Positions 31,180 through 54,889 of a DNA stretch of 57,196 bases are shown one piece after another. Under the pieces are notes generated by a model that did not search any database, had not been told where the DNA came from, and worked only from the letters and a program-made list of their open reading frames with translations. Made by a program: the position numbers and the translations under genes. The DNA is from an uncultured Clostridia bacterium (GTDB lineage Bacteria; Bacillota; Clostridia; Oscillospirales; Oscillospiraceae), in the NCBI GenBank assembly GCA_947168005.1, contig CAMVKI010000001.1, positions 1 to 57,196 of the forward strand. Direction: 5' to 3'. Each line of letters opens with the position of its first letter. Position 1 is the stretch's first letter.

Positions 31180-31185
31180 CTCTCA

Positions 31186-34053: not shown

Positions 34054-34073
34054 GACGGTCTCCTTTCATCCGA

Positions 34074-36379: not shown

Positions 36380-36479
36380 GCTCGTATCTCCTTTCGGGTT
36401 TGTTTCTACCCGAAGCATACACCCTCCCCCAAGGGGAAGGTCAAGAGTCTTAATCAAAAAAACGCTTTATTTTGAACAT

Positions 36480-37312: not shown

Positions 37313-37374
37313 GTCAGCCTCCAACCGCTTCCCGAAAAGGGACGAACTTATCCTTCAGGGCTTTTCGGTATATA

Positions 37375-37985: not shown

Positions 37986-38016
37986 TTTATTTCTGGTTCA
38001 TTCTTCGCTTCAACCG

Positions 38017-38532: not shown

Positions 38533-38628
38533 AATGATCCTCCCCGACTGACTATGTCAATTCTTGATTTGAGCCTACAGTGCGAACCCTGGTATCCTCT
38601 TTTGTTCCCAGCGAAAAAGATGCCGGAT

Positions 38629-39243: not shown

Positions 39244-39275
39244 AAAAGACACCTCTAAACCTTCATAAAGAATGG

Positions 39276-40115
39276 TCACGCATCAATCGTCCAGCCTTGG
39301 GTCTTCGGATCGGCCCGCAGCTCCCGCAGGGCTTCTTCCTCGGTGCCGAACAGAGACGGTCCGAAGGCCAGATCCGGCTGCCAAATGGCGGGCTTGGGAT
39401 GCTTGTCCGCGCGGCTGAGGTAGATCCAGTCCTCTTCCGACACGATTTCCAGGCGTTCCAGATGGTAGGTAAACAGCTTGTCCTTTCGCTGCAGTACCAC
39501 GGCCCGCTGCAGCTTGTCCGGGCTGTAGAAGACCCGGAGCGTTTTGCAAAGAGGGTAGTCCGGAGCCTGCCTGGACATTTCCTCCGCCAGGGTTGCGTCG
39601 TCCGGGATCGGGGGGATCGCGCGAGACGCATCTTTCGTTTTGCGGCGGAAGACGTCTCGGAGCAAGGCACGAAAGCTCCGCTTTCTGGCAGGCGCGGCTG
39701 CCCAGGCACAGGGAATTTTCACGCCCCAGACCGTGATGTAGAAATAGGGCTCTTCCTGCTCGTTCGGGTAGTAAGCCTCCGCGCCTTTTCCGCCCGGCTC
39801 GAAGTTCAGCCGCAGCGCTTCCGTGTCCTCCAATCGCGTTTCCTTCTTGCTGCCCGCAAGGATGGACCCGCTCACGGTGTAGTGGACCGCCGCATACTCG
39901 ATCACGCCGTCCTGCTCATAGGACTCCGTCTCGTCCGGTCTGGTTGCGTCCACACCGAAGCGTTCCAGCAGCTCTTCCAGCTTCGGATACCGCTGCCGGA
40001 CGATCTCCCGATAGTGGCGGCAATAGGTGCAGGTGCAAAGCGTGTTCGATTGGTAATAGGCTCGGGTGCGCTCCAGGTCTACGTCAAAAACGCAGCCATC
40101 TATTTTGACATCCAT
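39276..40115 (-). CDS. hypothetical Cys-cluster protein (intact paralogue)
   Basis: Start at MDVKIDGCVF (GGAGGGAGG upstream). Contains CTCTYCRHY. Homologous over about 830 bp to 36480..37312. Confidence 0.6.
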   Translation of the reverse strand: MDVKIDGCVFDVDLERTRAYYQSNTLCTCTYCRHYREIVRQRYPKLEELLERFGVDATRPDETESYEQDGVIEYAAVHYTVSGSILAGSKKETRLEDTEALRLNFEPGGKGAEAYYPNEQEEPYFYITVWGVKIPCAWAAAPARKRSFRALLRDVFRRKTKDASRAIPPIPDDATLAEEMSRQAPDYPLCKTLRVFYSPDKLQRAVVLQRKDKLFTYHLERLEIVSEEDWIYLSRADKHPKPAIWQPDLAFGPSLFGTEEEALRELRADPKTQGWTIDA

Positions 40116-40135
40116 GGAATTGCCTCCCTCCACAT

Positions 40136-40597
40136 TCATAGCTTCTTTCTGGAAGTCCAAATCGCATATCCAATGCACGCGCCCGCCATGTTGAGGGAAA
40201 TATCTTCAATATCAAAGCTGCCGAGCATCGTGAGAATTTGGATGGTTTCCACCGCAATGAGCGTTACGAGCGTCAGGATCGCAAAGCGCCGGAAGAACCG
40301 CATCCGCTCGAAGCAGGCAGGCAGCAAGACGCCCCACGGGATAAAAAGAAGGATGTTTCCAAAGAAGTTCAATGCAAAGCGGAAAACAACTGACACAGGC
40401 AGCACCGGCGCTGTAAACAAATCATACACGCTCTTAAAAGGGATAAAGTTGTGCATTGCGTTCAGGTATTCCGGATAGGTCCAGGGATAATCAACTCCGA
40501 TTCTGCGGAAAAACAGGACATAGAGAAGAACGATCCCATAGATAGCAAGTATGGCGAGTATGATTTTGTTCTTATTTGCTTTCATAACCTTACTCAT
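40136..40597 (-). CDS. VanZ-like family membrane protein
   Basis: Start at MSKVMKANK (ATGA overlap with the upstream stop). Four TM helices and an NILLFIPWGVLLP motif typical of VanZ. Confidence 0.65.
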   Translation of the reverse strand: MSKVMKANKNKIILAILAIYGIVLLYVLFFRRIGVDYPWTYPEYLNAMHNFIPFKSVYDLFTAPVLPVSVVFRFALNFFGNILLFIPWGVLLPACFERMRFFRRFAILTLVTLIAVETIQILTMLGSFDIEDISLNMAGACIGYAIWTSRKKL

Positions 40598-41028
40598 ATA
40601 TTTTGTTCCATATCTGTCGTTGGGCCGTAGTTGATTTCCCAATTCAGAAAAGACCCTAAAGTTCCGCAGTTCACGCAACGGTCGCCCTCGTACACCCATC
40701 GGACATCACCGTTCTCACGCCGTTCAAACCCGATTCGAACATTGAACTGTTTGCAGGTCTTGCACACGCTGCATTTACGCAATCTGGGAGAGGCATCTTC
40801 CCAGTATTCCTCACAGTCGAGCAGGATCTTTTTTGTCCCGCACAGCGGACATTTTATCTGGATTACGCTTTCGTTCTGATCGACGCGCAATTCCAACGCA
40901 TCATTGCCGCACACATGACACACGACCGCTCGATAATCCAGATGTTCATTCTCTGAATATTCCCGAAGATACTCTTCAATATCTTCCGAAGAATCACCGG
41001 TCCAGTACTTTTTCGTCCGATCAATCAT
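40594..41028 (-). CDS. hypothetical zinc-ribbon protein
   Basis: 144 aa with four CxxC pairs: CHVCG, CPLCG, CSVCKTC, CVNCG. Confidence 0.5.
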   Translation of the reverse strand: MIDRTKKYWTGDSSEDIEEYLREYSENEHLDYRAVVCHVCGNDALELRVDQNESVIQIKCPLCGTKKILLDCEEYWEDASPRLRKCSVCKTCKQFNVRIGFERRENGDVRWVYEGDRCVNCGTLGSFLNWEINYGPTTDMEQNI

Positions 41029-41141
41029 TCTTCTTTTCTCCGATCTATTATCTTTGGTTCGACAGCAGAGCTTTTGGAAGGGTTGTGCAAAAAAGATGCC
41101 AGAGAATTATCAATGATACAGCCTGATTTGCGATGATGCAA

Positions 41142-41603
41142 TTAAATATCGTCGATTGTAAGCGTAAACTGTTCGATATGTTTTTTGATATAGGAGGCAT
41201 TCAAAAATTCCAGGTCTTCTTCGTACGCGAAAAAAGCATCGTCGCATTCTTCCAATACAGATGCAACGGAATCAGGTACGCTATCGAGAAATGTTCTTCT
41301 CTCATCCCAGTCAACGGGGATGTCATGACCAAAAGCGGCAACCGCTTTTTTGCAGATTTCTGCTGTTTTATGTGCACCGATTTTCATGAAGGCTTCCGCA
41401 ATCTCATTGGCAAATTGTCCGCTGGAATTATCAAAGAATTGCCAAAACCCGCCATTATTCACTTCCATTTCCAGTTCCTGTGTTATAAAGATAGTACGTT
41501 CATACGGGTTTAGTAGGTCGGGTTGCTGACCGTAATCGCAAATGCTGCAGAGACCCATGTAAATATCGTTAACCGATTCACCGTTAAGCATGTTGTCCAT
41601 CAT
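41142..41603 (-). CDS. DUF4375 / DMP19-like protein (immunity or DNA-mimic family)
   Basis: 153 aa. The E.EVNNGGF.QFF motif (ELEMEVNNGGFWQFFDN) is characteristic of the DMP19 C-terminal domain family. Confidence 0.6.
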   Translation of the reverse strand: MMDNMLNGESVNDIYMGLCSICDYGQQPDLLNPYERTIFITQELEMEVNNGGFWQFFDNSSGQFANEIAEAFMKIGAHKTAEICKKAVAAFGHDIPVDWDERRTFLDSVPDSVASVLEECDDAFFAYEEDLEFLNASYIKKHIEQFTLTIDDI

Positions 41604-41749
41604 AATCCTCCGTTTTCCTTCATGTTTTTATTGACGATATCCTTTGTAGGTTTGTTAGTATTATTTTACCACAACCGCAGATGAATGGCAAGAGGCGCGA
41701 AAGCGGAGCTCTGTCCGCTTTCGTGCCATCGCATTTCAGTATGGTTCAT

Positions 41750-42820
41750 TCACGGATATACTGTGACAATAAAGCCGTCCGCATTGTTGCCAGAAATCGT
41801 ATAACTGCCGGTCGTAGGGACGACGACCTGATTTCCGGCACAGAAGTACAGCTCATAGCTGACTCCAAGGCAGGTCACATGGAGGTGCTCACCGGAAAAG
41901 CTGTAATTTCGCAGATAGTCGATGTATTCCTCCAGACAAAGGTTTTCTGTCTGCATGATATAAGCGTGCGGAAGGCCGACGTAGCGGAAGTGCCAGGATT
42001 CATAATTGATGCCGGTGATGTCGCTCTTCTGGGGCGGATAGCGTTGAATGAAACCATACTCCCAGGCGTGGGCAACGGCCCAGGCATATTCCCCGTCCCC
42101 GTCAAAGCCGCCGCTGGTCCCATCTTCGATGTTGTAGGTGTCCAGATCGACGGCCAGTCCTGTATGATGCTCGCTGTGACCGGGCAGGGCAAGGTAAGCG
42201 TCCGCGTATTCCTGACCCTTGTTGTTCACGGCGTTTTGGTACAGGCGGACCTGATCGTCATAGCTGCGCCAGCCTGCGACGATATTGACGTCTGTTCTTC
42301 CGCTTTCCGCCGCGAAGGAGTCCATCCACTGATTGAGTGCGTCCGCTGCGTCCTCGCGCAGACTGAGGATCTTGTCCTTCACGAAGTAGCTTCGCGTCTT
42401 TTTATCGTAGACGCTCACCGTTTGCGGCAGCCCGGGGTCGTAAGCGTGATCCCGATTGACCAGGATCAGCGTTCCCTGCGACAGATCTGCCTCCGTCATC
42501 TGCTGCCATTTCCAGCCTTCGGGCAGCTCCAGCAGCGAAGCGGCATGGTTGGCGTCTGTCCTTGTCGGCGTACCATCTTCGTCAGTTTTTCTTATGCAGA
42601 GAACAATGAGAAACACCAACGTCAGCACAAGGCAAACCACGATTCCGGACAGAATGATCTTTCTGCGTTTCCGTTGTTTTCTCTGCCGTTCTCTTGCTCT
42701 TGCCCTGCGAAGCCGCTCCGCGTCAGCGCTTGCTACCGTGATATAGTCGGTATTCCGGCTGTCTCTGACCCGTTGCTTTTTTGGCGTCTCAGAGGAACGA
42801 GTATGTTTGTCTGTTTTCAA
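41750..42820 (-). CDS. M15-family D-alanyl-D-alanine carboxypeptidase (VanY-like), membrane-anchored
   Basis: Basic N-terminus plus a TM helix. Motifs LVNRDH, GWRSYDDQ, PGHSEHHTGLAVDL and ESWHFRYVG are typical of VanY/LAS peptidases. Confidence 0.8.
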   Translation of the reverse strand: MKTDKHTRSSETPKKQRVRDSRNTDYITVASADAERLRRARARERQRKQRKRRKIILSGIVVCLVLTLVFLIVLCIRKTDEDGTPTRTDANHAASLLELPEGWKWQQMTEADLSQGTLILVNRDHAYDPGLPQTVSVYDKKTRSYFVKDKILSLREDAADALNQWMDSFAAESGRTDVNIVAGWRSYDDQVRLYQNAVNNKGQEYADAYLALPGHSEHHTGLAVDLDTYNIEDGTSGGFDGDGEYAWAVAHAWEYGFIQRYPPQKSDITGINYESWHFRYVGLPHAYIMQTENLCLEEYIDYLRNYSFSGEHLHVTCLGVSYELYFCAGNQVVVPTTGSYTISGNNADGFIVTVYP

Positions 42821-42846
42821 GGAAAAATGCCTCCTGAGAGATTGTT

Positions 42847-43800
42847 TTACAGCCGTTTCTTACCGAACAATAATTGGCTCAAATGACATATCAAAAGCAC
42901 AGAAGCAATAACAAGGACGCACCACCGGGCGCAGAGCTTTCGCTCTGCGAGGCGGGCGGCCTGCTCCCAGGGCGGGAGAGACGGCGTTTGCTCCGGCGGG
43001 CTGCGGAAAAAGTCCTTGGCCTGCTCCCAGAGCCGGGACAGGCGAAAGCGGCCCGTGGAGCTCGTGACGGTCCGGCCCGTCGCGTTTTGCAGGCTTTGGG
43101 CCGCGTAACCGTCGTAATACTCCGGCAGGATCGCCTCATAGAAGGTCACGTCTGCATCGTCCTGTATGGGCAGAAAGATCCTCGGTGCGATGCCGAAGGC
43201 GGCCTCGTTGGCCGCGCCGTCCGGCTCCCGGATCACGGCGATCACACGCCAGCCCAGGCCGCCAAGCTGGATGTCCTCTCCGATACAATCGGAAGATCCG
43301 AATAACGCGAAAGCTGCTGCTTCGTTCAGGACCGCCTCGCTGCCGGTGTCTGCGAAGGTCCCGGGGCCGCCCTCCGCCATAGAGAAGGCGTGCAGCGTAA
43401 AGAAATCCCTGGAGACCGACCAAAGCTCCGCCTCCGCCCTGCGATGCGCATAGACGGCGAGGCCGGAGCTTTTTGCGCCGTAGGCTGTGACAAAGGGCGG
43501 GATCTCCTCGGTTGGAAAGGAGGCTTGGAGCTCCTCTGCAAGCGTCTTAGCTTGTCCGGCGTCCATTTCCCCCTCGTTCCAGAAAACCGACACTTGGGAG
43601 TATGTCTGCTCCGATGGGCCCTTCCAGCGTTCAGCCTCGTATTGAAGCGTTTGGCTTGATGGGATGGCGCGAATGGAAAGGATGGACCAAAGGAGAATGC
43701 CCGCGAGCAAAAGCGTAACGACAATGGAAATACTCCGCATTCCTGCGGCTGGTTCCTTGGGCGGGCAGCCAATGGCCGCCCCTACATTGCTGTTGCTCAT
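42847..43800 (-). CDS. MacB-type periplasmic-core-domain protein lacking the FtsX transmembrane bundle
   Basis: 317 aa. N-terminal TM helix, a soluble domain of about 230 aa, and a single C-terminal TM helix. It sits where an FtsX permease usually follows a HlyD adaptor. Confidence 0.45.
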   Translation of the reverse strand: MSNSNVGAAIGCPPKEPAAGMRSISIVVTLLLAGILLWSILSIRAIPSSQTLQYEAERWKGPSEQTYSQVSVFWNEGEMDAGQAKTLAEELQASFPTEEIPPFVTAYGAKSSGLAVYAHRRAEAELWSVSRDFFTLHAFSMAEGGPGTFADTGSEAVLNEAAAFALFGSSDCIGEDIQLGGLGWRVIAVIREPDGAANEAAFGIAPRIFLPIQDDADVTFYEAILPEYYDGYAAQSLQNATGRTVTSSTGRFRLSRLWEQAKDFFRSPPEQTPSLPPWEQAARLAERKLCARWCVLVIASVLLICHLSQLLFGKKRL

Positions 43801-43803
43801 GGC

Positions 43804-45420
43804 TCAATCTCCGAAGCGCACGGCCTGGCCGTCGGACAGAGGCGCGCTGGACAGGATCACCACGTAATTCCGGCTGGTCAGTTCCCCCTTGACGGCGGTG
43901 TAGGCGTCGTCCCGGCGGAGCTCCTCCACGTCCACCCGACGCACTTTTGATCGGGACCCCAAAGGAGAGGATGTCGTCTCCACAACGTAGACGAAGGAGC
44001 CGACAGAATCCTTGTAGACCGCCGCGTTGGGGACCACGGTATCGTGCTTGCTGGTCTCCAGGGCAATTGCCAGAGACAGATATTGATCCGGAGCGGCGTT
44101 GTCCCCGGTGACGGTGAAGGTCAGCTCCTTCCGGTTCGTGGGGTCCGCCTTGTCGGGCTCGATGGCTGTCAGCACGACTCTGCTCCCCCCGCCGCTCTGA
44201 TTGGTGATCCGGGCCTCAGCCCCTAACTTCAGCATAGCGGCGTCCGCCAGGGAAACGGAGCAGCGCAGGGTGAAGGCGTCCGTGCTCTGCAGGGTGATCA
44301 TGACCTGCTCCGCTTCAAACTGCTCCTTTTCAAACAGGCTGTCGACGATGCCCTCCGCCTCAGCGCAGATCTCGGCTTCTCCGAGCTTCGCTTCCAGCTC
44401 CTGGATCTCCTGTTTTGTCTGCTCGATTTGGCCCTCCATCTCCGCCAGACGGGCGGCGGTGCGCTCGTCCTGAGCCTGGGAGTTCTTCTGCCGGTCGTAA
44501 TAGGAGGAAAGGGAGCTTTTCGCGGAGAGGACGGCGTTTTCACAGGCTTTTTCATCGGTGCAGCCGGCGTAATCCCGTTCCAGGGCAGAGATCTGCCCGT
44601 TGATAGAATCCACGGTTTCCTGGGCCGCGTCCACCGGGGGCTGATACTGAGCCCGGAGGCTCTGGAGGGCGGTGTCAGCCGTATAGCAGCGGTTCTGGCA
44701 TTCCAAAACCGCCGCGTTTGCCTCGTCCAGCGCCGTCTTTGCTGCGAGGCTGTCCTCCGACTCCGGATCGATCCCCGCGTAATAGTCGTAATTCGTCTGG
44801 GCGTTCTGCTGGCGCTGCTGGGCGGCAGTCAAGGCCTGGTGCGCCGCCTCCGCCTCCTCCGCCGCCGCGTCTACGCCGGCGCGGTAGGCGGTCTGCGCCT
44901 GAGACAGATCTTTTTCCGCAGAGGAAAGCTGGCTGTCAAGGGTCTTCCGCTTTCCGACGTACTCTTTGCAGCGGTTCTGTCGTTCCTGGGCTTCCTCCAA
45001 GTTGTTTTTCAAAATCTGATACTCCGCCCAGGCGCCGGAATCCGAGGGCAGAGAGGCGTTGAGCTGTTCCTCCGCGTAGGCCTTTTCCTGCTGTTCCAGC
45101 TCCGCCTGCTTGGCCGTAAGGGTCCCGTCGTCCAGGTATTCCACCTTCAGGAGGACGTCTCCGGCCTGCACCTTGTCGCCCGGCTCTACAAGCCGTTCCA
45201 GGATCCCGCCTTTTCGTTCCGCGGCCAGCTCCGTCACAGCCCCGGCCTCCGTCATACCGGCTCCGCTCACCACCGGGGTGATGGTCCCGGAGGTGACGGG
45301 CTTTGTGGTGACCTGTGGCAGAGTCAGATTCCGGATCGTCCCGGAAAAGAAGGTCAAGAGGGCCATGACTGCGAAAAACGCGATCAACGCCCATTTGACC
45401 CACGTTCTTTGTTTCTTCAT
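43804..45420 (-). CDS. HlyD-family membrane fusion (periplasmic adaptor) protein
   Basis: Start at MKKQRTWVKW (ATGA overlap with the upstream stop). TM helix, lipoyl-like hairpin GDKVQAGDVLLKVE, a long A/E/Q-rich coiled coil and a beta-barrel C-terminus. Confidence 0.75.
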   Translation of the reverse strand: MKKQRTWVKWALIAFFAVMALLTFFSGTIRNLTLPQVTTKPVTSGTITPVVSGAGMTEAGAVTELAAERKGGILERLVEPGDKVQAGDVLLKVEYLDDGTLTAKQAELEQQEKAYAEEQLNASLPSDSGAWAEYQILKNNLEEAQERQNRCKEYVGKRKTLDSQLSSAEKDLSQAQTAYRAGVDAAAEEAEAAHQALTAAQQRQQNAQTNYDYYAGIDPESEDSLAAKTALDEANAAVLECQNRCYTADTALQSLRAQYQPPVDAAQETVDSINGQISALERDYAGCTDEKACENAVLSAKSSLSSYYDRQKNSQAQDERTAARLAEMEGQIEQTKQEIQELEAKLGEAEICAEAEGIVDSLFEKEQFEAEQVMITLQSTDAFTLRCSVSLADAAMLKLGAEARITNQSGGGSRVVLTAIEPDKADPTNRKELTFTVTGDNAAPDQYLSLAIALETSKHDTVVPNAAVYKDSVGSFVYVVETTSSPLGSRSKVRRVDVEELRRDDAYTAVKGELTSRNYVVILSSAPLSDGQAVRFGD

Positions 45421-46277
45421 TTCATACCTCCGGTCACGATCCCTTCCTCTAAATGCCGTTCCCCTCCAAGGAAGAGCAGCAGGCAGGGGATCATGTAAAT
45501 CACAGCCGCGGCGAAAGCCAAGCCCAGCTCGCCCTGGTTGATTTTGCTCAGGTAGAGGGAGAGGGGCTGCAGCTCTTCGCTTTCCAGCAGCACCATGGGC
45601 TGCTCCACCATGTTCCAGTAGTCGAAAAAGATCAGCATCCCTACGGCAAACAAGGCGCTTTTGCACTGGGGCAGGAAGATCCTGCGGAAGATCTGCCATT
45701 CGTTGGCTCCATCCAGCTGGGCCGCCTCCAAATACACCTTGGGGATCCGCTGCATGTACTTTGTCAGCAGGAAGACGGCGAAGGGAGAGAAGATCCCCGG
45801 CAGCAGGATCGCCCAGATCGTGTCATAGGTGCCGAGCTGCTTGCTGATCAGATAGTTCGGCACCAAAGTCACCTGATAAGGCATCAGGGTCAGCACCAGG
45901 TAGCCGAAGAAGATCGCCCTGCGGAGGCGGCTCGGTTTCCGGCAGAAGCCGTAGGCCGCCAGCGCGGAAACGGCAGTCTGCAGGATCGTGATGGGAGCCG
46001 TGTACAGCACGGAGTTCCAGAACTTTTGCAGGTACTCCGGGCTCTGCAGCAGGAAGGTCTTGTACTGTTCCCCCGTGGCGATATCCGGCACCAGCTTCAG
46101 GATGATCCGTTCCTTCATATACCCGCCGCTGCCGAGAGCAGCCCCGTAGCTCCGCTCGATCTCCGATGCGGAAAGGAAGGAATTGACGACGGTCAGCACC
46201 GTTGGAAGGATAAAAAGCAGGGCCAGGATCATAAGGGCCAGCCAGAGGCAGCCATCTTTCACTCGTCGTTTTTTCAT
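45417..46277 (-). CDS. carbohydrate-type ABC transporter permease (MalG-like)
   Basis: Six TM helices. EAA loop YLEAAQLDGANEWQIFRRIFLP. Confidence 0.85.
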   Translation of the reverse strand: MKKRRVKDGCLWLALMILALLFILPTVLTVVNSFLSASEIERSYGAALGSGGYMKERIILKLVPDIATGEQYKTFLLQSPEYLQKFWNSVLYTAPITILQTAVSALAAYGFCRKPSRLRRAIFFGYLVLTLMPYQVTLVPNYLISKQLGTYDTIWAILLPGIFSPFAVFLLTKYMQRIPKVYLEAAQLDGANEWQIFRRIFLPQCKSALFAVGMLIFFDYWNMVEQPMVLLESEELQPLSLYLSKINQGELGLAFAAAVIYMIPCLLLFLGGERHLEEGIVTGGMK

Positions 46278-46293
46278 AGGTTACCTATCTGTA

Positions 46294-46421
46294 GCGGCGC
46301 ACACTGTGCGCCGCTTCCCATGCGTTATTTGTTTTCGGTATCGGCGTCCGTAGGGGCCGATGACCACATCGGCCCTTCTCGTTGTTGAAACGGCGGGCGG
46401 ATGTGGGCATCCGCCCCTACG
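46294..46421. repeat. REP-like cluster of GC-rich palindromes
   Basis: GCGGCGCACA-C-TGTGCGCCGC (46294-46314), GGGGCCGATG-accac-ATCGGCCC (46353-46375) and GGGCGGATG-tggg-CATCCGCCC (46396-46417), bracketed by CCGTAGGGG / CCCCTACGG. A related GGCGCACACTGTGC sits at 32798-32811. Confidence 0.6.
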
Positions 46422-46423
46422 GT

Positions 46424-47284
46424 TTATTCGTTCTCTGTGTCCTGGTCCAGGCGGCGCTCTATGCTCAACAGGACGGCGATCAATGCTCCCATGACCACCG
46501 CCAGCATCAGGGCCGCGGCGCTAAGCTTCTGGTAGTCCATGGTGCGGAAGGTGTTGTTCATGAAGTGCTGGAGCAGATACAGGCTCTCATAGGGATAAGA
46601 ACCCGTCAGCAGCCAGACCTCCCGGAAGATCTTCATGGAGGCGATCAGGCTCATGAGCACGACGAAAAAGACCGTCGGGGCCAGGAAGTGGATCTTGACG
46701 GAAAAGAACTGCCGGGTCCGGCCCGCGCCGTCCAGGTTGGCCATGTCCACATAAGTCCGGGGAATGGCCGCCAGGGCCGCGGTAAAGAGGATGGTGTGGT
46801 AGCCGATGTTTTTCCAGAGGTAGAGCAGCAGCACCATCAAAATGCTCCAGGGGGAGTGGAACCAGTCCACATGGGTCTCCAAAAAGGCGTTCAGCGTGCC
46901 GTTCTGGTGAAAAAGCACCTGCCAGACCAGGACCACCGAGGCGATGGGCACCAGCATGGGGCTGAGGAAGGCCGTGCGAAGCTGGCTCTTCATTGGTATC
47001 GCACGTTCCAGCCAGAGAGCCAGCTTCAGGGGCAGCAGCACCGCCAGGGGCACCGAAAGGCCGATCAGGATGGCGGTGTTCTTCGCCCCCAGCAGAAAGG
47101 CGCTGTTGTGCAGCAGGGCCTTGAAATTGTCCAGTCCCACAAACTCCCCGTTCACCGGCCGATTCACCAGGCTGTAGTAAATCACCATCCCAAATGGCAC
47201 CACAAAGAACAGCGCCACCCCAAGCAGGCTGGGGACCAGGAATAAAAACGTGTGGGATCGTTTTGGGTGCAGCCGTCGTTTCAT
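46424..47284 (-). CDS. carbohydrate-type ABC transporter permease (MalF-like)
   Basis: Six TM helices. EAA loop VDMANLDGAGRTRQFFSVKIHFLAP. Confidence 0.85.
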   Translation of the reverse strand: MKRRLHPKRSHTFLFLVPSLLGVALFFVVPFGMVIYYSLVNRPVNGEFVGLDNFKALLHNSAFLLGAKNTAILIGLSVPLAVLLPLKLALWLERAIPMKSQLRTAFLSPMLVPIASVVLVWQVLFHQNGTLNAFLETHVDWFHSPWSILMVLLLYLWKNIGYHTILFTAALAAIPRTYVDMANLDGAGRTRQFFSVKIHFLAPTVFFVVLMSLIASMKIFREVWLLTGSYPYESLYLLQHFMNNTFRTMDYQKLSAAALMLAVVMGALIAVLLSIERRLDQDTENE

Positions 47285-47285
47285 G

Positions 47286-49346
47286 TCAGCCTCGCTCAGA
47301 TAAGTAGATTTCGATCCGGTTCTGGATTCGTCGGGCGCATTCCTCTGCGGTAACGTCGCCGTTGAAATAAGCTTCCGCCTCTTCCAAAATGATCTGCTCC
47401 GGCTCGCCCAGGAGCGGGTCCATCAGGTGATCCGCATTCAGAAGCAATTCGCGCAGCTCTCTGGCGTCCTGTTCGAATTCATCGGTCGGATTCTGGGAAA
47501 CCCGTCGCTGAAGGAACTCGTCCAAGTGTGAAAGGTTGACCGGGAATTCGGATCCAAAGTCTGCGGGCACCTGCGGTTCGTCGAACCACTCCTCGTCGGC
47601 AAACAGGAAATCCATAAAAGCCTGGCCGCCCGAAGTATTGGAGCCGTTTACGATAGCGTAGAAGCCCATGCTATTCAGACCCAAGCCGGTGTAAGAGCCC
47701 ACGGGGAAGGGGAACAGCGTGCGGGCCTGCGTTTTCTTCAGGGGATCGTCATGGACCTTATAGTAATAATTTCCCAGCCAGAGCTCTTCGTAGATCTGGA
47801 ACCACTCTTTTCCGGCGTTGTAGTAGGCGCCGCCGTTGATGGAGGCAGTGTATTCGTCGTCCTCGAAGCGGTTGCAGAATTCCAGCGCCCCGCGGAAGGA
47901 ATCGGTGTTGAAGCGGGCGGTGCGGGTCTGCCAGTCGATCCAGCCGCTGCCGCATTGGTTCAGAATATTTTGCAGGACGATGTATTTTGCGTTGCTTTCA
48001 AAGGTCTCCGGGCAGTTGGCCTCGATCCGGGAGATCAAACGCTCCAGATCGGCGACGTCGCCCGCGCTGACGTAGGACGCCGGGATGCTGCAGCACACCA
48101 GCTCCACCTCCCGGGGCAGATAGACGCAGGCGCCGTCCACCGTGCAGAGGGGGACCAGGTTGGGCAGGACCCGGGCCGTGGTCGTCTCGTCGATGGGGGC
48201 CAACAGCCCCTTGACCGCGTAGTTGTTCAGCGCGTCCAGATCCGAGGAACAGATCAGGTCCAGCTCGCCGTTCAGCATGGCCAGGTTCATGCTTTCCAGA
48301 TCCTCAAAGGTCCTGGTCGTCACCTGCCAGCCGGTATCGGCCAGGTTGAAGGCCGCGATCGCCTGGCTGCAGTGATAATCCGGGTGATAGAGTCCGATGG
48401 TCAGTGTATCGCCTTTGTTTTCGCTTGGGTCCACGTGTACCAGACGGTCCCAGTCCATCACCAGGAAGGTCCCGTCCTCGAGGGCAAGGATGGTCGAAAA
48501 CTTTTCAAAATCGAGGCCCCAGGCGGCCAGATCGCAGAGCTCGGTCACGTTGGTCCCGTCCGTCTCATACAGCTTCGATCCGGAGAGCACCCAGGTCCCG
48601 GCGTCGTTCCAACAGGCGCGATCTACCAAGATGGGGAATTCCGACTCCGGCAAGCTCAGTTGGGTGGTGGTTCCGTCGATGGGACACAGCCATCTGCCCA
48701 CAGACGTGCGCTCATCCGTCCCTTGTACCTCTGTCCAGGCCGTCACCATCGCAAAGGTTTGACCGTTGATCTGGAGGACGCAACGCACCCAGAAATTCGC
48801 GCCCGGCTGGTCCGGCATCTCGACCTCGTTTTTTCCGCACCAGAGCCGAAGAAAATGAACTGTATAGAGGGTGTCGTCCGCCCATGCAAGCTGCATCAAG
48901 GCAGGATCACGCTCTGTCTGCATCATGAACTCACCGTCACAGTAAACGCCGCAGCCGTAGTTCGCACTCTCCATATCCCCATCATTCTCCAAGGTCCAGC
49001 GGTGGCCGCCGGCCTCCAAAATGCGGTACGGAGAAGGGTCTTCCTTTGACAGGTCGACGGTCTCGCCGACGGTCAGGTTTTCATCCAGCGTCGTCAGATG
49101 CCACCCCCATATATCGACAGAAAGCAGCAGATACCCCCCTTCGGTGGGACAGATATCCAGCAATCTATGTCCGCTCAGCCGGACTTCCTTCGGCAGCTCG
49201 AGCTTGTCAGAGGCGGGGGGCTCCGCAGCGTCGGGCATCGTGACAGTCTCTCCGGGAGCTGCGGGCTGATCCGGGTTTCCGCAGCCGCTCAACAGCAGCA
49301 GAAGGGTCAGAAGAAGTGCTGTCATTCTGATCAATCGTTTTTTCAT
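47286..49346 (-). CDS. lipoprotein: N-terminal beta-rich domain fused to an extracellular solute-binding domain
   Basis: Lipobox LLLSGCG. 686 aa. The C-terminal half has an SBP-like pattern (LNGELDLICSSD...NYAVKGLLAPID). Paralogue of 50539..52644, with near-identical C-termini (DVTAEECARRIQNR.EIYL.ERG). Confidence 0.65.
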   Translation of the reverse strand: MKKRLIRMTALLLTLLLLLSGCGNPDQPAAPGETVTMPDAAEPPASDKLELPKEVRLSGHRLLDICPTEGGYLLLSVDIWGWHLTTLDENLTVGETVDLSKEDPSPYRILEAGGHRWTLENDGDMESANYGCGVYCDGEFMMQTERDPALMQLAWADDTLYTVHFLRLWCGKNEVEMPDQPGANFWVRCVLQINGQTFAMVTAWTEVQGTDERTSVGRWLCPIDGTTTQLSLPESEFPILVDRACWNDAGTWVLSGSKLYETDGTNVTELCDLAAWGLDFEKFSTILALEDGTFLVMDWDRLVHVDPSENKGDTLTIGLYHPDYHCSQAIAAFNLADTGWQVTTRTFEDLESMNLAMLNGELDLICSSDLDALNNYAVKGLLAPIDETTTARVLPNLVPLCTVDGACVYLPREVELVCCSIPASYVSAGDVADLERLISRIEANCPETFESNAKYIVLQNILNQCGSGWIDWQTRTARFNTDSFRGALEFCNRFEDDEYTASINGGAYYNAGKEWFQIYEELWLGNYYYKVHDDPLKKTQARTLFPFPVGSYTGLGLNSMGFYAIVNGSNTSGGQAFMDFLFADEEWFDEPQVPADFGSEFPVNLSHLDEFLQRRVSQNPTDEFEQDARELRELLLNADHLMDPLLGEPEQIILEEAEAYFNGDVTAEECARRIQNRIEIYLSERG

Positions 49347-49376
49347 AGATAATTCCTCTTATGCGCGTGATTTGGC

Positions 49377-50522
49377 TCAACCCTCGGCAAAGCCGGCGAA
49401 AATCGTGGGTTCTCCTCGGAGCACGTCTATGGAGACCAATTCCACCTGAAGCGCCAGCTCTTCCAGGAGCGCTTCTACCTCCGCGCCGCTGCGATCAGCG
49501 GAAAGGAAGAGCATGGGCCCGTCTTCATACAGGCAAATCAAACAGGCCTCATCGCGCACAGTGTACCAACGGGCCTCCCGGCCGTTCAGGGTCCCGGTGC
49601 GGATCAGCTGAAACCCGCTCGTTCGTTCAAAGTCAACGAAGGAGGCATATACGTAGAGCGAAATCCACAGTCCGTCCGTCGGACGGATCAGAGCAAGCTG
49701 GCTGTACAGCCCGCTCAGATCCGTCTCCGGGGCCTTCAGCTGGTTGCCATACATAGTGTCTTCCTGAAGCCCTGTGAAATCCCAGTAGATCTCAAAACCC
49801 TCCGGCAGCTCCGGCAGCCGCAGAGGGTAGAAGGTCGTCACTTCCCGCCGGATCGGCACCCCGGAGTCCACCAGCGTCAGGTGGGAGAGGGCCTCCTCGC
49901 AGCGCTCGAAGCTCCGGTTGGAGCTGACCACAAGCGTGCAGCGCAGCGCCTCGCTGTGACAGAAGAGGTGGTAGGTGTCTTCCGAAACGCCGAATGATTG
50001 ACTGACGACCGTAACCCAAACAGTTTCCAGGTCCTGCAGCGTGCCCTCCTTCACCATCTCCGGCTCATAGAGGACGAAATAATCCCGATAACTCAGCCCG
50101 TCCCGATCCAGGATATTGACGGAGAGCTTCTCACCATCCGGCGTAATTGGGAAGTACTGCGTGTAGACCTCCCCAAGGGCTTCTGGGTTCAACACAGTCT
50201 GGGAATCGGCCTGTCGGTTTGCCGCGAGTCTCTTCAGCATTTTGTTGTACATGCCGCCATTCCGGTCCGGCAAGGACCATCCGTCCAAGGTGAAGCCGAT
50301 ATAGTTGCCCTCTCCCGTGTCCACAAACATCGTTTCGTTCTGCCGAGCAGGGCCGGAGCTTGCTCCGCTTTCCAATTGATTTGGATCTGTAACGTCCGCG
50401 ACAGATCCAACCGGGTCTTGTTCCGTTGTCACCGGAGTCTCCGGCGTACCGCAGCCGCTCAACAGCAGCAGGGCTACAAACAGAAGTGCAAGAAAAGCGT
50501 GATATTCAGAGTGATATTTCAT
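49377..50522 (-). CDS. hypothetical lipoprotein, paralogue of the anti-sigma ectodomain
   Basis: Lipobox LLLSGCG. Shares blocks with 52668..53930 (T.HLFC..AL.CTLVVSS.R.F.RCEEA..HL.LVD.GVPIRR; ARWY). Confidence 0.6.
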   Translation of the reverse strand: MKYHSEYHAFLALLFVALLLLSGCGTPETPVTTEQDPVGSVADVTDPNQLESGASSGPARQNETMFVDTGEGNYIGFTLDGWSLPDRNGGMYNKMLKRLAANRQADSQTVLNPEALGEVYTQYFPITPDGEKLSVNILDRDGLSYRDYFVLYEPEMVKEGTLQDLETVWVTVVSQSFGVSEDTYHLFCHSEALRCTLVVSSNRSFERCEEALSHLTLVDSGVPIRREVTTFYPLRLPELPEGFEIYWDFTGLQEDTMYGNQLKAPETDLSGLYSQLALIRPTDGLWISLYVYASFVDFERTSGFQLIRTGTLNGREARWYTVRDEACLICLYEDGPMLFLSADRSGAEVEALLEELALQVELVSIDVLRGEPTIFAGFAEG

Positions 50523-50538
50523 AAGCTGTTCCTCCGTG

Positions 50539-52644
50539 TCAGCCGCGTTCTGCCAGATAGATCTCCACCCGGTTCTGGATGCGGCGGGCGCATTCCTCGG
50601 CGGTGACGTCGCCGTTGAAATAGGGCTGGGCCTCTTCCAGGATGACGGATTCGAGTTCGGTGGTGGTCGCGGAAAGGAAATGATCGGCCTGCTCCAACAG
50701 GGTCATCCAATCGGAAAGGTCCCGGGAGATATTCGGATCCGTCATGGCGTCCCCGTAGAGGGAAAGGTGCTTCTCGATCAAGGCGCGGCAGTGGTCCTCC
50801 TGGACCGGCCACCGAGCGTCGTAGATCTCCCGGTTGGTCACGGGCTCGTCATACCATTCAGTCTCGGAGAACAGGAATTCAAAGAAGGCCTTCGCGCCGG
50901 ACAGCCCGTCTCCGTCCACCATGGCGTAGAAGCTGCCCACATGCATGGACAGGCCGCTGTGATCCGCCGACGGGAAGGGGAAGAGGACCTTGGCCTTCTT
51001 TCCGGTCTCGGGATCGTCCCGGACCTTCATGCCGTAGGTGTTTTCCTGGACTTGGTCATTGACCGTAAAATAGCCGATCCCGGCGTTGTAGTATCCGTTA
51101 CGGTTGGCGTTAGCCTCGTCCTGACTGTCCTCGAAGCGATCCGCGAAACGAAGCAGGGTCAGGAAGGAGGCGTCGGTAAAGTACGCGGTGCGATTTTCCC
51201 AGTCGATCCAGCTGTCGGAACACTGGGACACGGCCCAGCGGAAGATGTTTTCCTTGGTGTCGCATTCCCAGCTCTCGGGGCAGGCCCGGTCGATCAGGGC
51301 GGCGAGCCGATCCAGATCGCGCAGGTCCGCCGGGTCCGTCACGGCTGCGGCAGGAATGGAGCAGCAGCTCAGGTACCGGATCTCCCGGGGCAGACAATAG
51401 CAGACGCCCCTGTCCGAACAGGCGGCGACCACCTTGGGCAGGATCCGGTCCGTGACGGCGCTGTCGATGGGGGCCAGCAGACCCTTGGAGGCGTAGTTGT
51501 GCAGGAGCTCCGCATCCTTGAGATAGAGAAGGTCCAGCTCCCCGTTCAGCAGGGCGAGGTTCAGGGTCTCCGGGTCGGAGAAGCTGCGGGTGTTGATCCG
51601 CCATCCGGTCCCGGCCCGGTTGAAGGCCGTGATATCCTCGGTGCAGCGATAGTCCTCTAAGAGATAGCCCATGGTCAGGGTCTGACCTCCGGCGCGGCGG
51701 GGGTCCACGTGGAGCACGCAGTCCGGCTCCACCGCCAGGAAGCTCCCGTCCGGGCAGGCCAGCAGCCGCTTCAGAACGGAGAAGGAGCAGTCCACTCCCA
51801 GGGCTCCTAGGTCGCAGACCTCCTCGCAGCTCAGGCCGTCGGTCTTGAATAGCTTGGAGCCGGCAAGCAGCCAGGCCCCGTCCCCGTACCAGCAGGCTTG
51901 GAAGGCGTCTGCGGGGAGGGCGACGGTCTGTTCCGGCAGGCTCAGCTTCTCCGTGTCAGGATCAACGGGACAGAGCCAGCGTCCGGCGGAGCCGCCGTCG
52001 CCCCAGCCCGAGAGCAGGGCATACATCTGATCCCCGGCCCGGACGACGCAGTTCACGTTGTAGCGGACGCCGCCGGTCTGGGGCAGCTCGATCTCCCGCT
52101 GGCCGATCCAGAGCCGGAAGTCGTGGACGGTGTAGAGGGTCCCGTCCTCCCATGCCAGCTGGCCGAGGCTCAGCATCTCTCCCACCCGTACCCAGGGTTC
52201 GCCGTCCCGGAAAACCCAGACTCCCTGGGGCTCCGAACTGTCGCTGAGGACCCAGAGGCTGCCGTCGGCCCGGAGGACGGCAGTGGGATCATAATCGTCC
52301 ACGCGCTCGGAGTTTACGGGCTCCAGCTTTTCGTTGAGCGCGGTCAGGAAGGTCCCGTAGCGCTCTCCCTCGGCGGGTTCCAACGGATCGCCCTCCCAGG
52401 CCAGCAGCCAGCCCTCCTCCGTGGAGCAGAGATCCAGCATCGTCCGGCCCTCCAGCTCGAACACGTCGGGCAGCCCGCTCTCCGGGGCCTGGGTCTCGCT
52501 GCTCTGGCCCCCCATGGTCACCACGGGGCCGGAGCCGTCGGCAGGGGCGGTACTGCGTTCGCTTTCTTTCGTCTCGCCGCCGCAGCCTGTCAGAAGCAGC
52601 AAAGCGGCGAGGAGGAACGCAAAGAATCTGGTCTGATTTTTCAT
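50539..52644 (-). CDS. lipoprotein: N-terminal beta-rich domain fused to an extracellular solute-binding domain (paralogue 2)
   Basis: Lipobox LLLTGCG. 701 aa. Collinear with 47286..49346. Confidence 0.65.
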   Translation of the reverse strand: MKNQTRFFAFLLAALLLLTGCGGETKESERSTAPADGSGPVVTMGGQSSETQAPESGLPDVFELEGRTMLDLCSTEEGWLLAWEGDPLEPAEGERYGTFLTALNEKLEPVNSERVDDYDPTAVLRADGSLWVLSDSSEPQGVWVFRDGEPWVRVGEMLSLGQLAWEDGTLYTVHDFRLWIGQREIELPQTGGVRYNVNCVVRAGDQMYALLSGWGDGGSAGRWLCPVDPDTEKLSLPEQTVALPADAFQACWYGDGAWLLAGSKLFKTDGLSCEEVCDLGALGVDCSFSVLKRLLACPDGSFLAVEPDCVLHVDPRRAGGQTLTMGYLLEDYRCTEDITAFNRAGTGWRINTRSFSDPETLNLALLNGELDLLYLKDAELLHNYASKGLLAPIDSAVTDRILPKVVAACSDRGVCYCLPREIRYLSCCSIPAAAVTDPADLRDLDRLAALIDRACPESWECDTKENIFRWAVSQCSDSWIDWENRTAYFTDASFLTLLRFADRFEDSQDEANANRNGYYNAGIGYFTVNDQVQENTYGMKVRDDPETGKKAKVLFPFPSADHSGLSMHVGSFYAMVDGDGLSGAKAFFEFLFSETEWYDEPVTNREIYDARWPVQEDHCRALIEKHLSLYGDAMTDPNISRDLSDWMTLLEQADHFLSATTTELESVILEEAQPYFNGDVTAEECARRIQNRVEIYLAERG

Positions 52645-52667
52645 AATGTCTCCTCTCGGTTCTTGTA

Positions 52668-53930
52668 TCAGCCCATGGCCAGGCCGTGAAATTCGATTGG
52701 CGCATCCTGGATCACGACAACAGGCACGGGCTCAAGCAGGGCCGCGATCTGCTCCAGCTCGCCGGGGTGCAGCTCCGTTTCTTTTTGACTTGCCCGGATC
52801 TCCACCTCGCAGCCCAGGTCCTCGTACCAGATCACCAGGATCGTGCTGGGCGGGCCCTGGGTCTTCAGGTTGTAGTCGATATAGTTGATATTCCGATACC
52901 AGCGGGCTTCATGGCCGTCGATCTCCCCGGTTTTGATCAGGGTCGCGCTCTGGGATCGGGTGTAATCGAAGCGTTCTCCCCGGACGGAAATGTTCAGGCT
53001 GGAGCCGTCGGTTCTGGAGAGGATCTGGTCCGCCCAGAGCCCTGTCAGGTCCTGGGTTGGGTCAGCCAGGGTCGCGTTCAGCAGATCCTCGGAGAGGGGC
53101 ACACTGTCCCAATAGCGGAGGCCCTCCGGCAGCTCCACCCTGCCCAGACCGAAAACGGTTTTCGTGTCGCTCCGCCGGATGGGGACGCCGGTGTCCACCA
53201 GGCGCAGATGGGCGGCGGCCTCCTCGCAGCGGGCGAAGTCCCGGCTGGAGCTGACGACCAGGGTGCAGCCCAGGGCGGCGTCCCGGCAGAACAGGTGCCA
53301 GGTGTCCCCCAGGCCCGGCTCCACAATCCGCAGCCAGGCCACGTCCAGCCCGTTCAGGCTCCCCTCCTTGACCAGCTCTGTCTCGTAGCGGGTGAAATAG
53401 CTCCGGTAGCCGACGCCCGTGCGGTCCAGCATTTCCACGCAGAGCAGTTCCCCGTCGGGCGCGGCGGCAAAGTAGCGCTGATACACGGCCTCCGCGTTGT
53501 CCGAAAGCGCTGCGTTCTGCGCGAGGCCGTGGTAATCCAGCCAGCTTTGCATGGAATTGGTGCCGCGGGTGTCCGCGCCGGGGATGGAAAAATCGTCCAT
53601 GGTAAAGCCAACGTAGGTCCCCTGACCCGGATCGTCGATTTCAATTCCGGCCTGTGGCTTCGGCGGATCGGTGGGCTGGACCGGTCCGTCCACCTCTTTT
53701 TGGGGGCGCTCCGTGAGGGTCGGCTCTTGGGTCAGGCGGAACCAGTGCGAGACCGCGTAAACCGTACCGCCCAGCAACAGAATGACCACGGCGGCTACGG
53801 CGATCAGCGCACTGAGCCGGATCGATACTCTGCGCTTTGGGTGCTCTTTTGGGATCTCCAATAAACGATCGACAGCCTCTTTGGAAGGCTGGATCTTGGA
53901 AAATGCTGCGCGATATTGTTCTTTTGTCAT
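52668..53930 (-). CDS. putative anti-sigma factor with a large extracytoplasmic domain
   Basis: Lies directly after the ECF sigma gene (1-nt gap). Short cytoplasmic N-terminus, TM helix LSALIAVAAVVILLLGGTVYAV, and an ectodomain of about 350 aa. Confidence 0.55.
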   Translation of the reverse strand: MTKEQYRAAFSKIQPSKEAVDRLLEIPKEHPKRRVSIRLSALIAVAAVVILLLGGTVYAVSHWFRLTQEPTLTERPQKEVDGPVQPTDPPKPQAGIEIDDPGQGTYVGFTMDDFSIPGADTRGTNSMQSWLDYHGLAQNAALSDNAEAVYQRYFAAAPDGELLCVEMLDRTGVGYRSYFTRYETELVKEGSLNGLDVAWLRIVEPGLGDTWHLFCRDAALGCTLVVSSSRDFARCEEAAAHLRLVDTGVPIRRSDTKTVFGLGRVELPEGLRYWDSVPLSEDLLNATLADPTQDLTGLWADQILSRTDGSSLNISVRGERFDYTRSQSATLIKTGEIDGHEARWYRNINYIDYNLKTQGPPSTILVIWYEDLGCEVEIRASQKETELHPGELEQIAALLEPVPVVVIQDAPIEFHGLAMG

Positions 53931-53931
53931 G

Positions 53932-54411
53932 TTACTCGCCCTCCGTTAACTCAGATTTCAAGCGTTTTCGTCCCCGGACCAGCCGCATCTTGACCGACGC
54001 CTGGCTAATGTTCAGCAAATCTGCAATTTCTTTGACTGGCAGATCTTCGTAGTAGTACAAATGGATGACGGCGCGCAGGGGTTCGGGTAGACGCAAAACG
54101 GCGGAGATCAGATCAAGGTCCTCCGGTTCCGTGGCTGTTGTGCCAAGGGCCTCCAACTCCTCAATGGAGAGGGGCTCCCGAGCCCGGGCCCGCAGCAGGC
54201 TGCGACTCTCATTCACCGTCACCTTGGTCAGCCATTTGTCCAAGTGGGTCTCGTCAGTGAAGACTACAGGATGCTTCCACAGCTTGAGAAAAACCGTCTG
54301 CATCACGTCTTCCGCGTCCTGCCGCTGCCGTGTGAAGGACAGGGCCAGCAGGAAGACCCGTTGGCTGTTCCGCTTGACCGCCTCCGTATAGATTTGTTGA
54401 TCCAAAATCAC
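53932..54411 (-). CDS. ECF-type sigma-70 family RNA polymerase sigma factor
   Basis: 159 aa (GTG start). Region 2 AEDVMQTVFLKLW and region 4 HTH LPVKEIADLLNISQASVKMRLVRGRKRL. Confidence 0.8.
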   Translation of the reverse strand: MILDQQIYTEAVKRNSQRVFLLALSFTRQRQDAEDVMQTVFLKLWKHPVVFTDETHLDKWLTKVTVNESRSLLRARAREPLSIEELEALGTTATEPEDLDLISAVLRLPEPLRAVIHLYYYEDLPVKEIADLLNISQASVKMRLVRGRKRLKSELTEGE

Positions 54412-54604
54412 ACCACCTGCCTTAATATGAAAAACGACTTTGAACGACTTTGAAAAGTCCTTTCACTTATTTAACGCTTGAGCAACGAAAAAGGTAACAT
54501 CATAAAAATAGTTTTTCAGGAAATATAATAACACAACCAGGGCGGATGTAAAACCCCGCCCTGGTTAGATGATAAGCATGTTTAGTTAGTCGAATATTTG
54601 CAAA

Positions 54605-54639
54605 CAGAAAAGCCAGCCGCAATGCAACTGGCTTTTCTG
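54605..54639 (-). terminator. hairpin downstream of the island-borne tRNA-Leu
   Basis: CAGAAAAGCCAG / CTGGCTTTTCTG form a 12-bp stem. On the minus strand it is followed by TTTG, 25 nt after the tRNA CCA end. Confidence 0.45.
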
Positions 54640-54663
54640 TTGCTCTGGGGCAGCCCAGGCCAA

Positions 54664-54746
54664 TGGTGCGCCCGAGGGGACTCGAACCCCTACGCCAAGG
54701 CAATGGCTCCTAAGACCATCGTGTCTACCAATTCCACCACAGGCGC
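54664..54746 (-). tRNA. tRNA-Leu(UAG), complete, carried inside the island
   Basis: The minus strand reads GCGCCTG-TG-GTGGAATTGGTAGACAC-G-ATGGT-CTTAGGA-GCCAT-(variable arm)-AGGGGTTCGAGTCCCCT-CGGGCGC-ACCA. 83 nt, with acceptor, D, anticodon and T stems all pairing, and the anticodon loop CT-TAG-GA. Confidence 0.9.
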
Positions 54747-54809
54747 ATATTCACTCTTTCAGGGGGAATGGTGGAATAGAGAAAGGAAAAACCTTCCCGG
54801 AGGTGACAC

Positions 54810-54817
54810 AACCTAAA
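54810..54817. repeat. right copy of the 8-bp direct repeat AACCTAAA (attL/attR core)
   Basis: Identical to 4606..4613. Confidence 0.75.
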
Positions 54818-54849
54818 TCCAGCGTGTCTGCCAATTCCACCATGCCCGC
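54810..54849 (-). tRNA. 5' portion (40 nt) of the split tRNA-Leu(UAG)
   Basis: The minus strand reads GCGGGCA-TG-GTGGAATTGGCAGACAC-G-CTGGA-TTTAGGTT and then diverges (GTGTCACC...). GCGGGCA is the exact complement of TGCCCGC in the 3' part at 4563..4613. Confidence 0.85.
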
Positions 54850-54860
54850 GGGTGTGGATT

Positions 54861-54889
54861 ATCATAACACGGAAACAGGGATTTGTCAA
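54861..54889 (-). promoter_or_regulatory. promoter of the (now split) host tRNA-Leu gene
   Basis: On the minus strand: TTGACA (54889->54884), 17 nt, TATGAT (54866->54861), then 11 nt to tRNA position 1 at 54849. Confidence 0.6.

Follow-up and report, generated by a model that had tools for sequence, protein, structure and literature searches.

A putative serine-recombinase island within a split tRNA-Leu(UAG) gene and its candidate replacement tRNA behind the host promoter

The interrupted host gene and the tRNA at the island end

A stretch of 57,196 nucleotides of contig CAMVKI010000001.1, from an uncultured Clostridia bacterium of the Oscillospiraceae, was analysed as a whole (hereafter the window, a 57-kb segment to which all coordinates refer unless a locus of a related genome or metagenome assembly, designated L001 and so forth, is named). 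It was found to contain a host tRNA-Leu(UAG) gene split within its anticodon loop and, between the two halves, an island harbouring two large serine recombinases (LSRs) and a complete tRNA-Leu(UAG) of its own (Table 1). An earlier reading of this window (the original prediction) had placed the complete tRNA where it could use the promoter of the disrupted gene; all of its coordinates were correct and every element that it listed was present. Along the minus strand, the order of features was the terminator of a phosphotransferase system (PTS) gene, a 28-nt repeat, the host tRNA promoter, 11 nt, the orphan 5' half of the host gene, 63 nt, the island tRNA and a hairpin. The 11 nt separate the end of the host -10 element from the first base of the truncated tRNA (54849), and both the promoter motif and this spacing agreed with the claim that the host promoter is kept upstream of the truncated fragment.

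The orphan 5' half, 39-40 nt in length (GCGGGCATGGTGGAATTGGCAGACACGCTGGATTTAGGT), stops within the anticodon loop, the host fragment terminating in ...CTGGATTTAGGT at 54811 and being closed by the shared core TTTAGGTT at 54817-54810 (attachment site attL). The 3' half (TTTAGGTTCCAGTGGGAAACCATGCAGGTTCGAGTCCTGTTGCCCGCACCA), of which the original prediction made no mention, was located on the same strand about 50 kb away. When rejoined, the two halves gave a clean 83-nt tRNA-Leu(tag) according to ARAGORN, with perfect acceptor and anticodon stems. The only sequence that the two junctions have in common is the 8-bp core, which corresponds to tRNA positions 32-39. Past this core the island arms did not match the tRNA, and the attL core is followed by an attP arm and not by the 3' half of the gene.

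Only one tRNA was called by ARAGORN in the whole window, the island tRNA-Leu with anticodon tag (54664-54746, minus strand), which also scored 56.2 bits against Rfam RF00005 (gathering score 29). Its anticodon loop reads CT-TAG-GA, and U33 and G37 are present, as expected for a bacterial type II tRNA-Leu. The existence of a complete and distinct tRNA-Leu(UAG) 63 nt past the break (54809-54747) on the same strand was borne out by both tools, which agreed on a canonical tRNA-Leu(UAG) and indicated neither another anticodon nor a pseudogene. Compared with the rejoined host tRNA, its acceptor, anticodon, variable and T stems are all different in sequence, and it is therefore a distinct gene, not a duplicate. 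Three element-borne and three host tRNAs (two rejoined and one intact) were aligned for a test of the cloverleaf. Pairing was kept in 98.6% of the pair cells (82% in shuffles), changes on both sides were present in 13 of the 23 pairs, and the signal was lost on sliding the partners. This conservation indicates that the tRNAs are genes under selection and not relics.

Table 1. Features of the split tRNA-Leu(UAG) locus and of the inserted island, with coordinates in the window
Feature	Coordinates	Strand	Basis
Host tRNA promoter TTGACA-17-TATGAT, with TG before the -10 element	54861..54889	-	Consensus scan, 11/12 matches
Orphan 5' half of host tRNA-Leu(UAG), nt 1-40; attL junction	54810..54849	-	Rejoining with the 3' half
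Island-side right attP arm (GTGTCACCTCC...GGTTTTTCC) and 63-nt spacer	54747..54809	-	Conservation in relatives
Complete island tRNA-Leu(UAG), 83 nt; long variable arm, A73, encoded CCA	54664..54746	-	ARAGORN, Rfam
Terminator-like hairpin 3' of the island tRNA; 20-bp stem, loop AUU, then U-rich tract	54600..54643	-	Predicted fold
Large serine recombinase 2 (LSR2), 429 aa, in tandem with LSR1	14858..16147	+	Pfam/NCBIfam domains
Large serine recombinase 1 (LSR1), 538 aa; Resolvase, Recombinase, Zn_ribbon_recom; R8 and S10	13237..14853	+	Pfam/NCBIfam domains
Conserved core adjoining the LSR pair: 287-aa, 998-aa (RdRP-like, PF05183) and 587-aa proteins	6118..11851		Gene order kept in L008
Island-side left attP arm (CACGGAGTTGACTTAGCC), attR junction	4614..4640	-	Inverted repeat with the right arm
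3' half of host tRNA-Leu(UAG), core TTTAGGTT (4613-4606) through CCA; attR junction	4563..4613	-	T-arm motif search
Inserted island, about 50.2 kb	4614..54809		Span between the two junctions

The spacer between the break and the island tRNA contains ATTCCACCATTCCC (54777-54764), in which 13 of 14 bases are complementary to nt 3-16 of the host fragment; none of 2000 shuffles gave as good a match. According to the fold predicted for a precursor, the orphan half pairs with this segment and makes no contact with the island tRNA; this may prevent the orphan half from disturbing how the new tRNA folds. A shorter predicted pairing (CCATCAT/ATGATGG), which was not significant, was found for the spacers of about 190 nt carried by relatives, and the pairing was absent from the A-type spacer. 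On the other side of the island tRNA, the terminator-like hairpin (54643-54600) encloses the 54605-54639 hairpin of the original prediction and is kept in L001.

Three further observations concern the surroundings of the two halves. A second hairpin, rich in guanine and cytosine (GC), occupies 54567-54534 between the tRNA terminator and a gene for an extracytoplasmic function (ECF) sigma factor, and overlaps a promoter-like TTTACA-16-TATTAT (54552-54525, minus strand). A 28-nt unit (TTCTCTGCTGAGGCCGACGGGCAAACAT, plus strand), repeated 2.9 times at 100% identity (54895-54975), separates the terminator of the PTS gene from the promoter of the host tRNA; it could be a binding site for a regulator or an upstream promoter element. 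Near the other half, at the end of a TetR-family gene, GGTTCGAGTCCTGT (4179-4192, plus strand) is identical to the T-arm of the host tRNA-Leu and inversely oriented; it lies at a distance of 400 nt from the real 3' half and may be the relic of an older tRNA fragment.

Recombinases, attachment sites and related elements

Both LSRs display Resolvase, Recombinase and zinc-ribbon domains and an intact YxRLS motif with R8 and S10. Searches of about 60 island open reading frames (ORFs) against Pfam and NCBIfam gave no match to tyrosine integrases (Phage_integrase), nor to phage capsid, tail, terminase or portal families. The premise that this is a serine-recombinase element was upheld by these results together with the LSR-type attP and the presence of relatives at the same site.

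The arms of attP in the window form an imperfect inverted repeat, CGGAGTTGAC-N16-GTCACCTCCG. Combining the arms of relatives (attR of L018 and attL of L013) yielded GGTGACATCACC-TTTA-GGTGATGTCACC, a perfect 12-bp inverted repeat centred on the TT of U33-U34. As reconstructed from these sequences, attP is of serine-integrase anatomy, with an inverted repeat and few bases in common with attB; on the attB side, dyad symmetry is provided by the anticodon stem-loop. The crossover probably takes place within the 8-bp core at the TT of U33-U34. Serine recombinases discriminate attP from attB through their differing arm sequences. The argument of the original prediction, that such a recombinase cannot simply carry the 3' half of its target, is reasonable in this light. 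With nothing but the core in common between attP and attB, integration does not restore the host gene. Recombinases of this clade, at 68-78% identity, were always associated with this tRNA site, and LSR1 and LSR2 would be the catalysts of the integration.

The sequence of the island tRNA from the anticodon stem to the variable arm was found in 1 of 185,579 species representatives, a metagenome-assembled genome of the Oscillospiraceae (L001), and a metagenome scan added two more assemblies of the same lineage (L002 and L006); no match was found in viral contigs. Four of the six metagenome matches to the 19-nt arm (L003, L004, L005 and L007) were rejected as chance matches. Over the junction arm, the 63-nt spacer, the tRNA and the hairpin, the L001, L002 and L006 lineage was 97% identical to the window. 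The host 5' half is slightly different in this lineage (G7, against A7 in the window), and its host flanks did not align at all with those of the window. Arms related to the one at 54747-54809, which is conserved in these three loci, were also present in L013, L015, L023 and L027.

In L006 (143-9051), the island measures 8.9 kb, has the same junctions and tRNA cassette, ends in a matching 3' half and is devoid of recombinase. Judged from its sequence, it looks like a decayed and immobilised remnant whose host would now be dependent on the tRNA of the element. Relative to L006, the window has two extra segments, 6113-28548 and 39313-54595. The genes carried by L006 encode a helix-turn-helix protein, an HExxH protein, membrane proteins and an AAA_14/DUF4143 ATPase 97.7% identical to that at 4679-5983 of the window.

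In L008, an LSR (P0004) 78% identical to that of the window belongs to a pair that is preceded by 278-aa, RdRP-like 997-aa and 582-aa proteins, and the same tRNA 3' half lies about 8.7 kb upstream, next to the arm GAGGTGAC-AACACC-ATTAGGTT, which is directly followed by CCAG. A family of 552-aa LSRs, 69% identical to the window LSR, returned thousands of matches, mostly from metagenome assemblies in ENA. The elements to which they belong are mobilisable, and their genes are arranged as DUF6076, AAA_25, NikA-like, relaxase, LSR, LSR. A complete tRNA-Leu(tag) is located on the opposite strand 1.6-3.8 kb past the LSR pair, with at least one tRNA 5' half ahead of it. Such halves end in TTTAGGT directly followed by G(A/C)TGTCACCTCA (also written GATGTCACCTC).

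Altogether, six independent contexts showed the tRNA-side junction (the window; L001/L002/L006; L013/L014/L016/L017; L015; L023/L024; L027-L029). A complete tRNA-Leu(UAG) followed on the same strand in all six, at a distance of 63 to about 190 nt, as had been asked of related islands in the original prediction. Independent genomes share this arrangement, so that it is no accident of the window. These six contexts also bear on the view that the tRNA is ordinary cargo, supplying codons or acting as a decoy for anticodon nucleases, and has no relation to the damage done by integration. Transfer RNAs are common on mobile elements, and an anti-defence role has been raised (PMC10865867), but mere cargo would hardly be expected always to match the target in isoacceptor type and in strand and to follow the junction immediately (6/6), at sites where the target was not rebuilt in any case. 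We regard this explanation as extremely improbable.

The arm-to-tRNA spacer of about 190 nt was well conserved in four host contexts (L013, 15598-15776; L015, 11368-11544; L023, 14616-14792; L027, 13089-13265) and includes, just upstream of the tRNA, a hairpin that resembles a terminator of the opposite strand. Such a spacer could harbour a promoter, encode a small RNA or bind a directionality factor.

An empty and an occupied site were provided by L020 and L018, which were 100% identical over 12,555 bases and diverged inside the anticodon loop, exactly at the core. L020 has an intact tRNA with its promoter. In L018, the arm AAGGTGACATCACC directly followed by TTTAGGTT leads into the 3' half, with an element of the 552-aa-LSR kind beyond. 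Together with the rejoined halves of the window, this pair of loci indicates a conservative recombination whose reversal by excision would restore the target exactly. L020 also contains, at 10001-12587, a single gene for a 709-aa LSR 66% identical to LSR1, with only 375 nt between the end of this gene and the 3' terminus of the intact tRNA-Leu(UAG). The two genes are convergent, as in occupied sites, and no orphan half is present; this LSR may represent a fused or fixed older element, or a coincidence.

Stacked halves were found at two loci. In L013 (15777-15941), the host half is succeeded by arm A and, after 70 nt, by another 5' half of different sequence; this one leads into arm B, from which the complete tRNA is separated by about 190 nt. 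Two different halves with two different arms require two integrations, the second of them into the tRNA of the first element, so that the replacement tRNA regenerates the target. L017 (8695-9203) displays four orphan 5' halves, with an attP arm after every one of them and a single complete tRNA beyond the last. This array was not retained as proof of four serial integrations, since an unequal crossover duplicating a 344-bp unit fits equally well. The idea that the island tRNA, with its loop CTTAGGA, is immune to re-targeting was likewise dropped, because the targeted host half in L027 also has C32 (CTTAGGT).

The 998-aa protein adjoining the LSR pair (6971-9967, minus strand) matched the eukaryote-type RNA-dependent RNA polymerase (RdRP) family PF05183 with an E value of 1.9e-14; a sequence search of the PDB returned only spurious P-loop matches and no relative. 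An RdRP-like gene takes the same place in L008 (4099-7092), and DUF6076, AAA_25 and relaxase genes take it in the 69%-identical relatives. These relatives carry a relaxase (PF03432) and a NikA-like protein; neither was detected in the core of the window. L008 additionally has a reverse transcriptase gene (RVT_1) just within the element (1911-3053) and, between the CCA of the host 3' half and the terminator, an insertion of about 1 kb (211-1226) bounded by inverted repeats and containing a 213-aa ORF.

Accessory genes of the island in the window include that for the AAA_14/DUF4143 ATPase. The cargo located from the LSR pair to the tRNA (16301-54411) encodes, among others, a two-component system (response regulator and histidine kinase) and an ABC/FtsX exporter, BlaI/BlaR1, a 445-aa serpin, VanY and VanZ, a DMP19-like protein, MacB/HlyD-like proteins, sugar ABC permeases accompanied by large lipoproteins, and two sigma factors of the ECF type. 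GC content ranges from 44 to 68% across this segment, and such swings suggest accretion from several sources.

Probable promoter capture and the fate of the host gene

In a consensus scan, the host promoter was the sole promoter-like site upstream of the island tRNA on the minus strand, and none was found in the 63-nt spacer. In the reconstructed circular junction, no site reached 8/12 matches within 300 nt upstream of the island tRNA. No terminator was predicted between the host promoter and the island tRNA, which that promoter would thus be placed to drive. With no promoter-like site upstream of the tRNA in the circular form and the host promoter as the only such site after insertion, the cassette appears to be silent when free and switched on by integration.

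It is likely, in our view, that an island mobilised by the LSR pair split the anticodon loop of the host tRNA-Leu(UAG) gene and that a promoterless replacement-tRNA cassette was thereby fused to the host promoter. The LSR pair would direct the island into the anticodon loop. Right behind its attP arm, the island would bring the 63-nt spacer, the complete tRNA-Leu(UAG) and the terminator, all on the strand of the target gene, and integration would join this cassette to the host tRNA promoter. The predicted transcript would consist of a short leader, the orphan 5' half, the spacer, the island tRNA and the terminator. RNase P would free the mature island tRNA, which would take over the decoding of CUA (and other CUN) codons and would be needed for host viability. 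The original prediction had claimed that integration destroys the host tRNA and places an isoacceptor behind its promoter; the split gene and the position and strand of the new tRNA agreed with this, and transcription from that promoter is what we infer.

Several observations weigh against this interpretation. The LSR pair is situated 8.6 kb inside the island from the 3'-half junction and 38.5 kb from the tRNA end, and because of this distance the link between the LSRs and the junctions required a comparative test. The closest copy of the cassette, in L006, is without recombinase, which implies that part of the 50 kb of the window is accretion. For a more distant LSR (54% identical, from Subdoligranulum, L022), neither a tRNA nor tRNA halves were found within 20 kb, so that the behavior would be limited to a sub-family of these recombinases. 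Furthermore, the promoter scans were based on consensus sequences, which weak promoters can escape, and the longer spacers of relatives, of about 190 nt, could contain promoters of their own.

One alternative is that the 50-kb segment is a dead relic, its junctions having been made by another, lost recombinase and its LSR pair being part of a nested element without relation to them. L006 has the same junctions without a recombinase, and the LSR block of the window falls within the 22.4-kb segment that is extra to L006 (6113-28548). L008 and the 552-aa LSR family nevertheless link this clade of LSRs with the same site and with related arms, a search of the island for other junctions of the same family found none, and both halves of the host tRNA are undecayed. 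A relic of this kind is therefore considered very unlikely.

The limits of the promoter scans leave room for another alternative, namely that the island tRNA does complement the lost gene but is transcribed from an unrecognised promoter of its own or by read-through from the island, its place behind the host promoter being incidental. A perfect TATAAT is present in the A-type spacer of L013, the B-type spacers are conserved over their roughly 190 nt, and the phage tRNA of a known tyrosine-integrase system has its own promoter (PMC10865867). In the window, however, the spacer is only 63 nt long and consists largely of the attP arm, the reconstructed attP form offers no site at the 8/12 level, and the tRNA is on the strand of the target in each of the six contexts. 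Transcription independent of the host promoter is thus thought to be unlikely.

Under the interpretation of a captured promoter, the consequences for the host depend on how the island is lost. The original prediction had suggested that the host could become dependent on keeping it. This stood for imprecise loss and for decayed copies without recombinase, as in L006, but not for precise excision, which would rebuild the host tRNA; dependence would consequently arise only after imprecise loss or decay of the recombinase.

Relation to known systems and implications

The closest known parallel is the tRNA-dependent lysogeny of actinobacteriophages (Fionnbharth, Cluster L and Gaia; Guerrero-Bustamante and Hatfull, mBio 2024, PMC10865867), which are temperate phages with lambda-like tyrosine integrases. 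As in these phages, attB lies in a host tRNA gene, the core is too short (about 8-10 bp) to restore the tRNA, and a complete tRNA comes with the element, here the tRNA-Leu(tag) at 54664-54746 and its equivalents in 6/6 related contexts. In contrast, the present elements have LSRs, with no tyrosine integrase among the ORFs scanned, and instead of phage genes, none of which were seen, the cargo is regulatory, transport-related and resistance-like. Furthermore, the tRNA of Fionnbharth-type phages is encoded elsewhere in the phage genome and has a demonstrated promoter of its own (PMC10865867), whereas here the tRNA abuts attP behind the host promoter. Prophage Lj965 of Lactobacillus johnsonii, as far as PMC10865867 relates it, is another case in which integration fails to rebuild the tRNA and a cognate tRNA is carried by the element, as found here; in that account, Lj965 differs in being a prophage with four tRNA genes.

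Classical tRNA islands (Islander; Williams 2002; Hudson et al. 2015, PMC4383910) resemble the present one in having a tRNA gene on one side and a displaced fragment on the other, and the anticodon loop is among the sublocations known for integration (PMC4383910). They differ in their use of tyrosine integrases and of a copy of the 3' part of the tRNA that restores the gene, the target not being regenerated here. Serine-recombinase integrative mobilizable elements of Firmicutes (PMC5704250) and LSR elements that split genes are similar in having LSRs, sometimes in tandem, very short junction identity and a disrupted target gene. The cases described split dispensable protein genes, in contrast to the tRNA target and the substitute brought along in the present elements. 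Among the open-access papers and preprints searched, none was found to describe a tRNA gene split by a serine-recombinase element that carries the replacement. The principle is already known from tRNA-dependent lysogeny; what differs is the recombinase family, the type of element and the promoterless tRNA abutting attP.

The observations from the window and its relatives can be joined in a broader but tentative picture, to which we give slightly less than even credence. It would be a 'cut-and-replace' strategy used by a widespread clade of serine-recombinase elements in Clostridia of the gut and rumen, in which attP hits the anticodon loop of tRNA-Leu(UAG) and a promoterless tRNA captures the promoter. 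Because the replacement tRNA again offers the target sequence, further elements could insert into it (as the stacked halves of L013 and L017 illustrate), replacement could become permanent (L006), and, in elements of the type found in the window, spacer pairing may shield the new tRNA.

If true, the strategy of breaking a tRNA gene and bringing one's own would extend from actinobacterial phages with tyrosine integrases to serine-recombinase islands and mobilisable elements of gut Clostridia. This would contradict the older statement that serine recombinases are not known to target tRNA genes (PMC4383910). It is also possible that the compact, natural combination of attP and tRNA, with its built-in selection for integrants, could serve genetics in anaerobes that are hard to engineer. 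As to the biology of these elements, the arrangement offers a possible answer to how a recombinase dependent on differing attP and attB arms may exploit an essential and highly conserved target: the element carries an entire gene without a promoter, which integration activates. It would also provide a route for the horizontal replacement, and then the fixation, of an essential tRNA gene.

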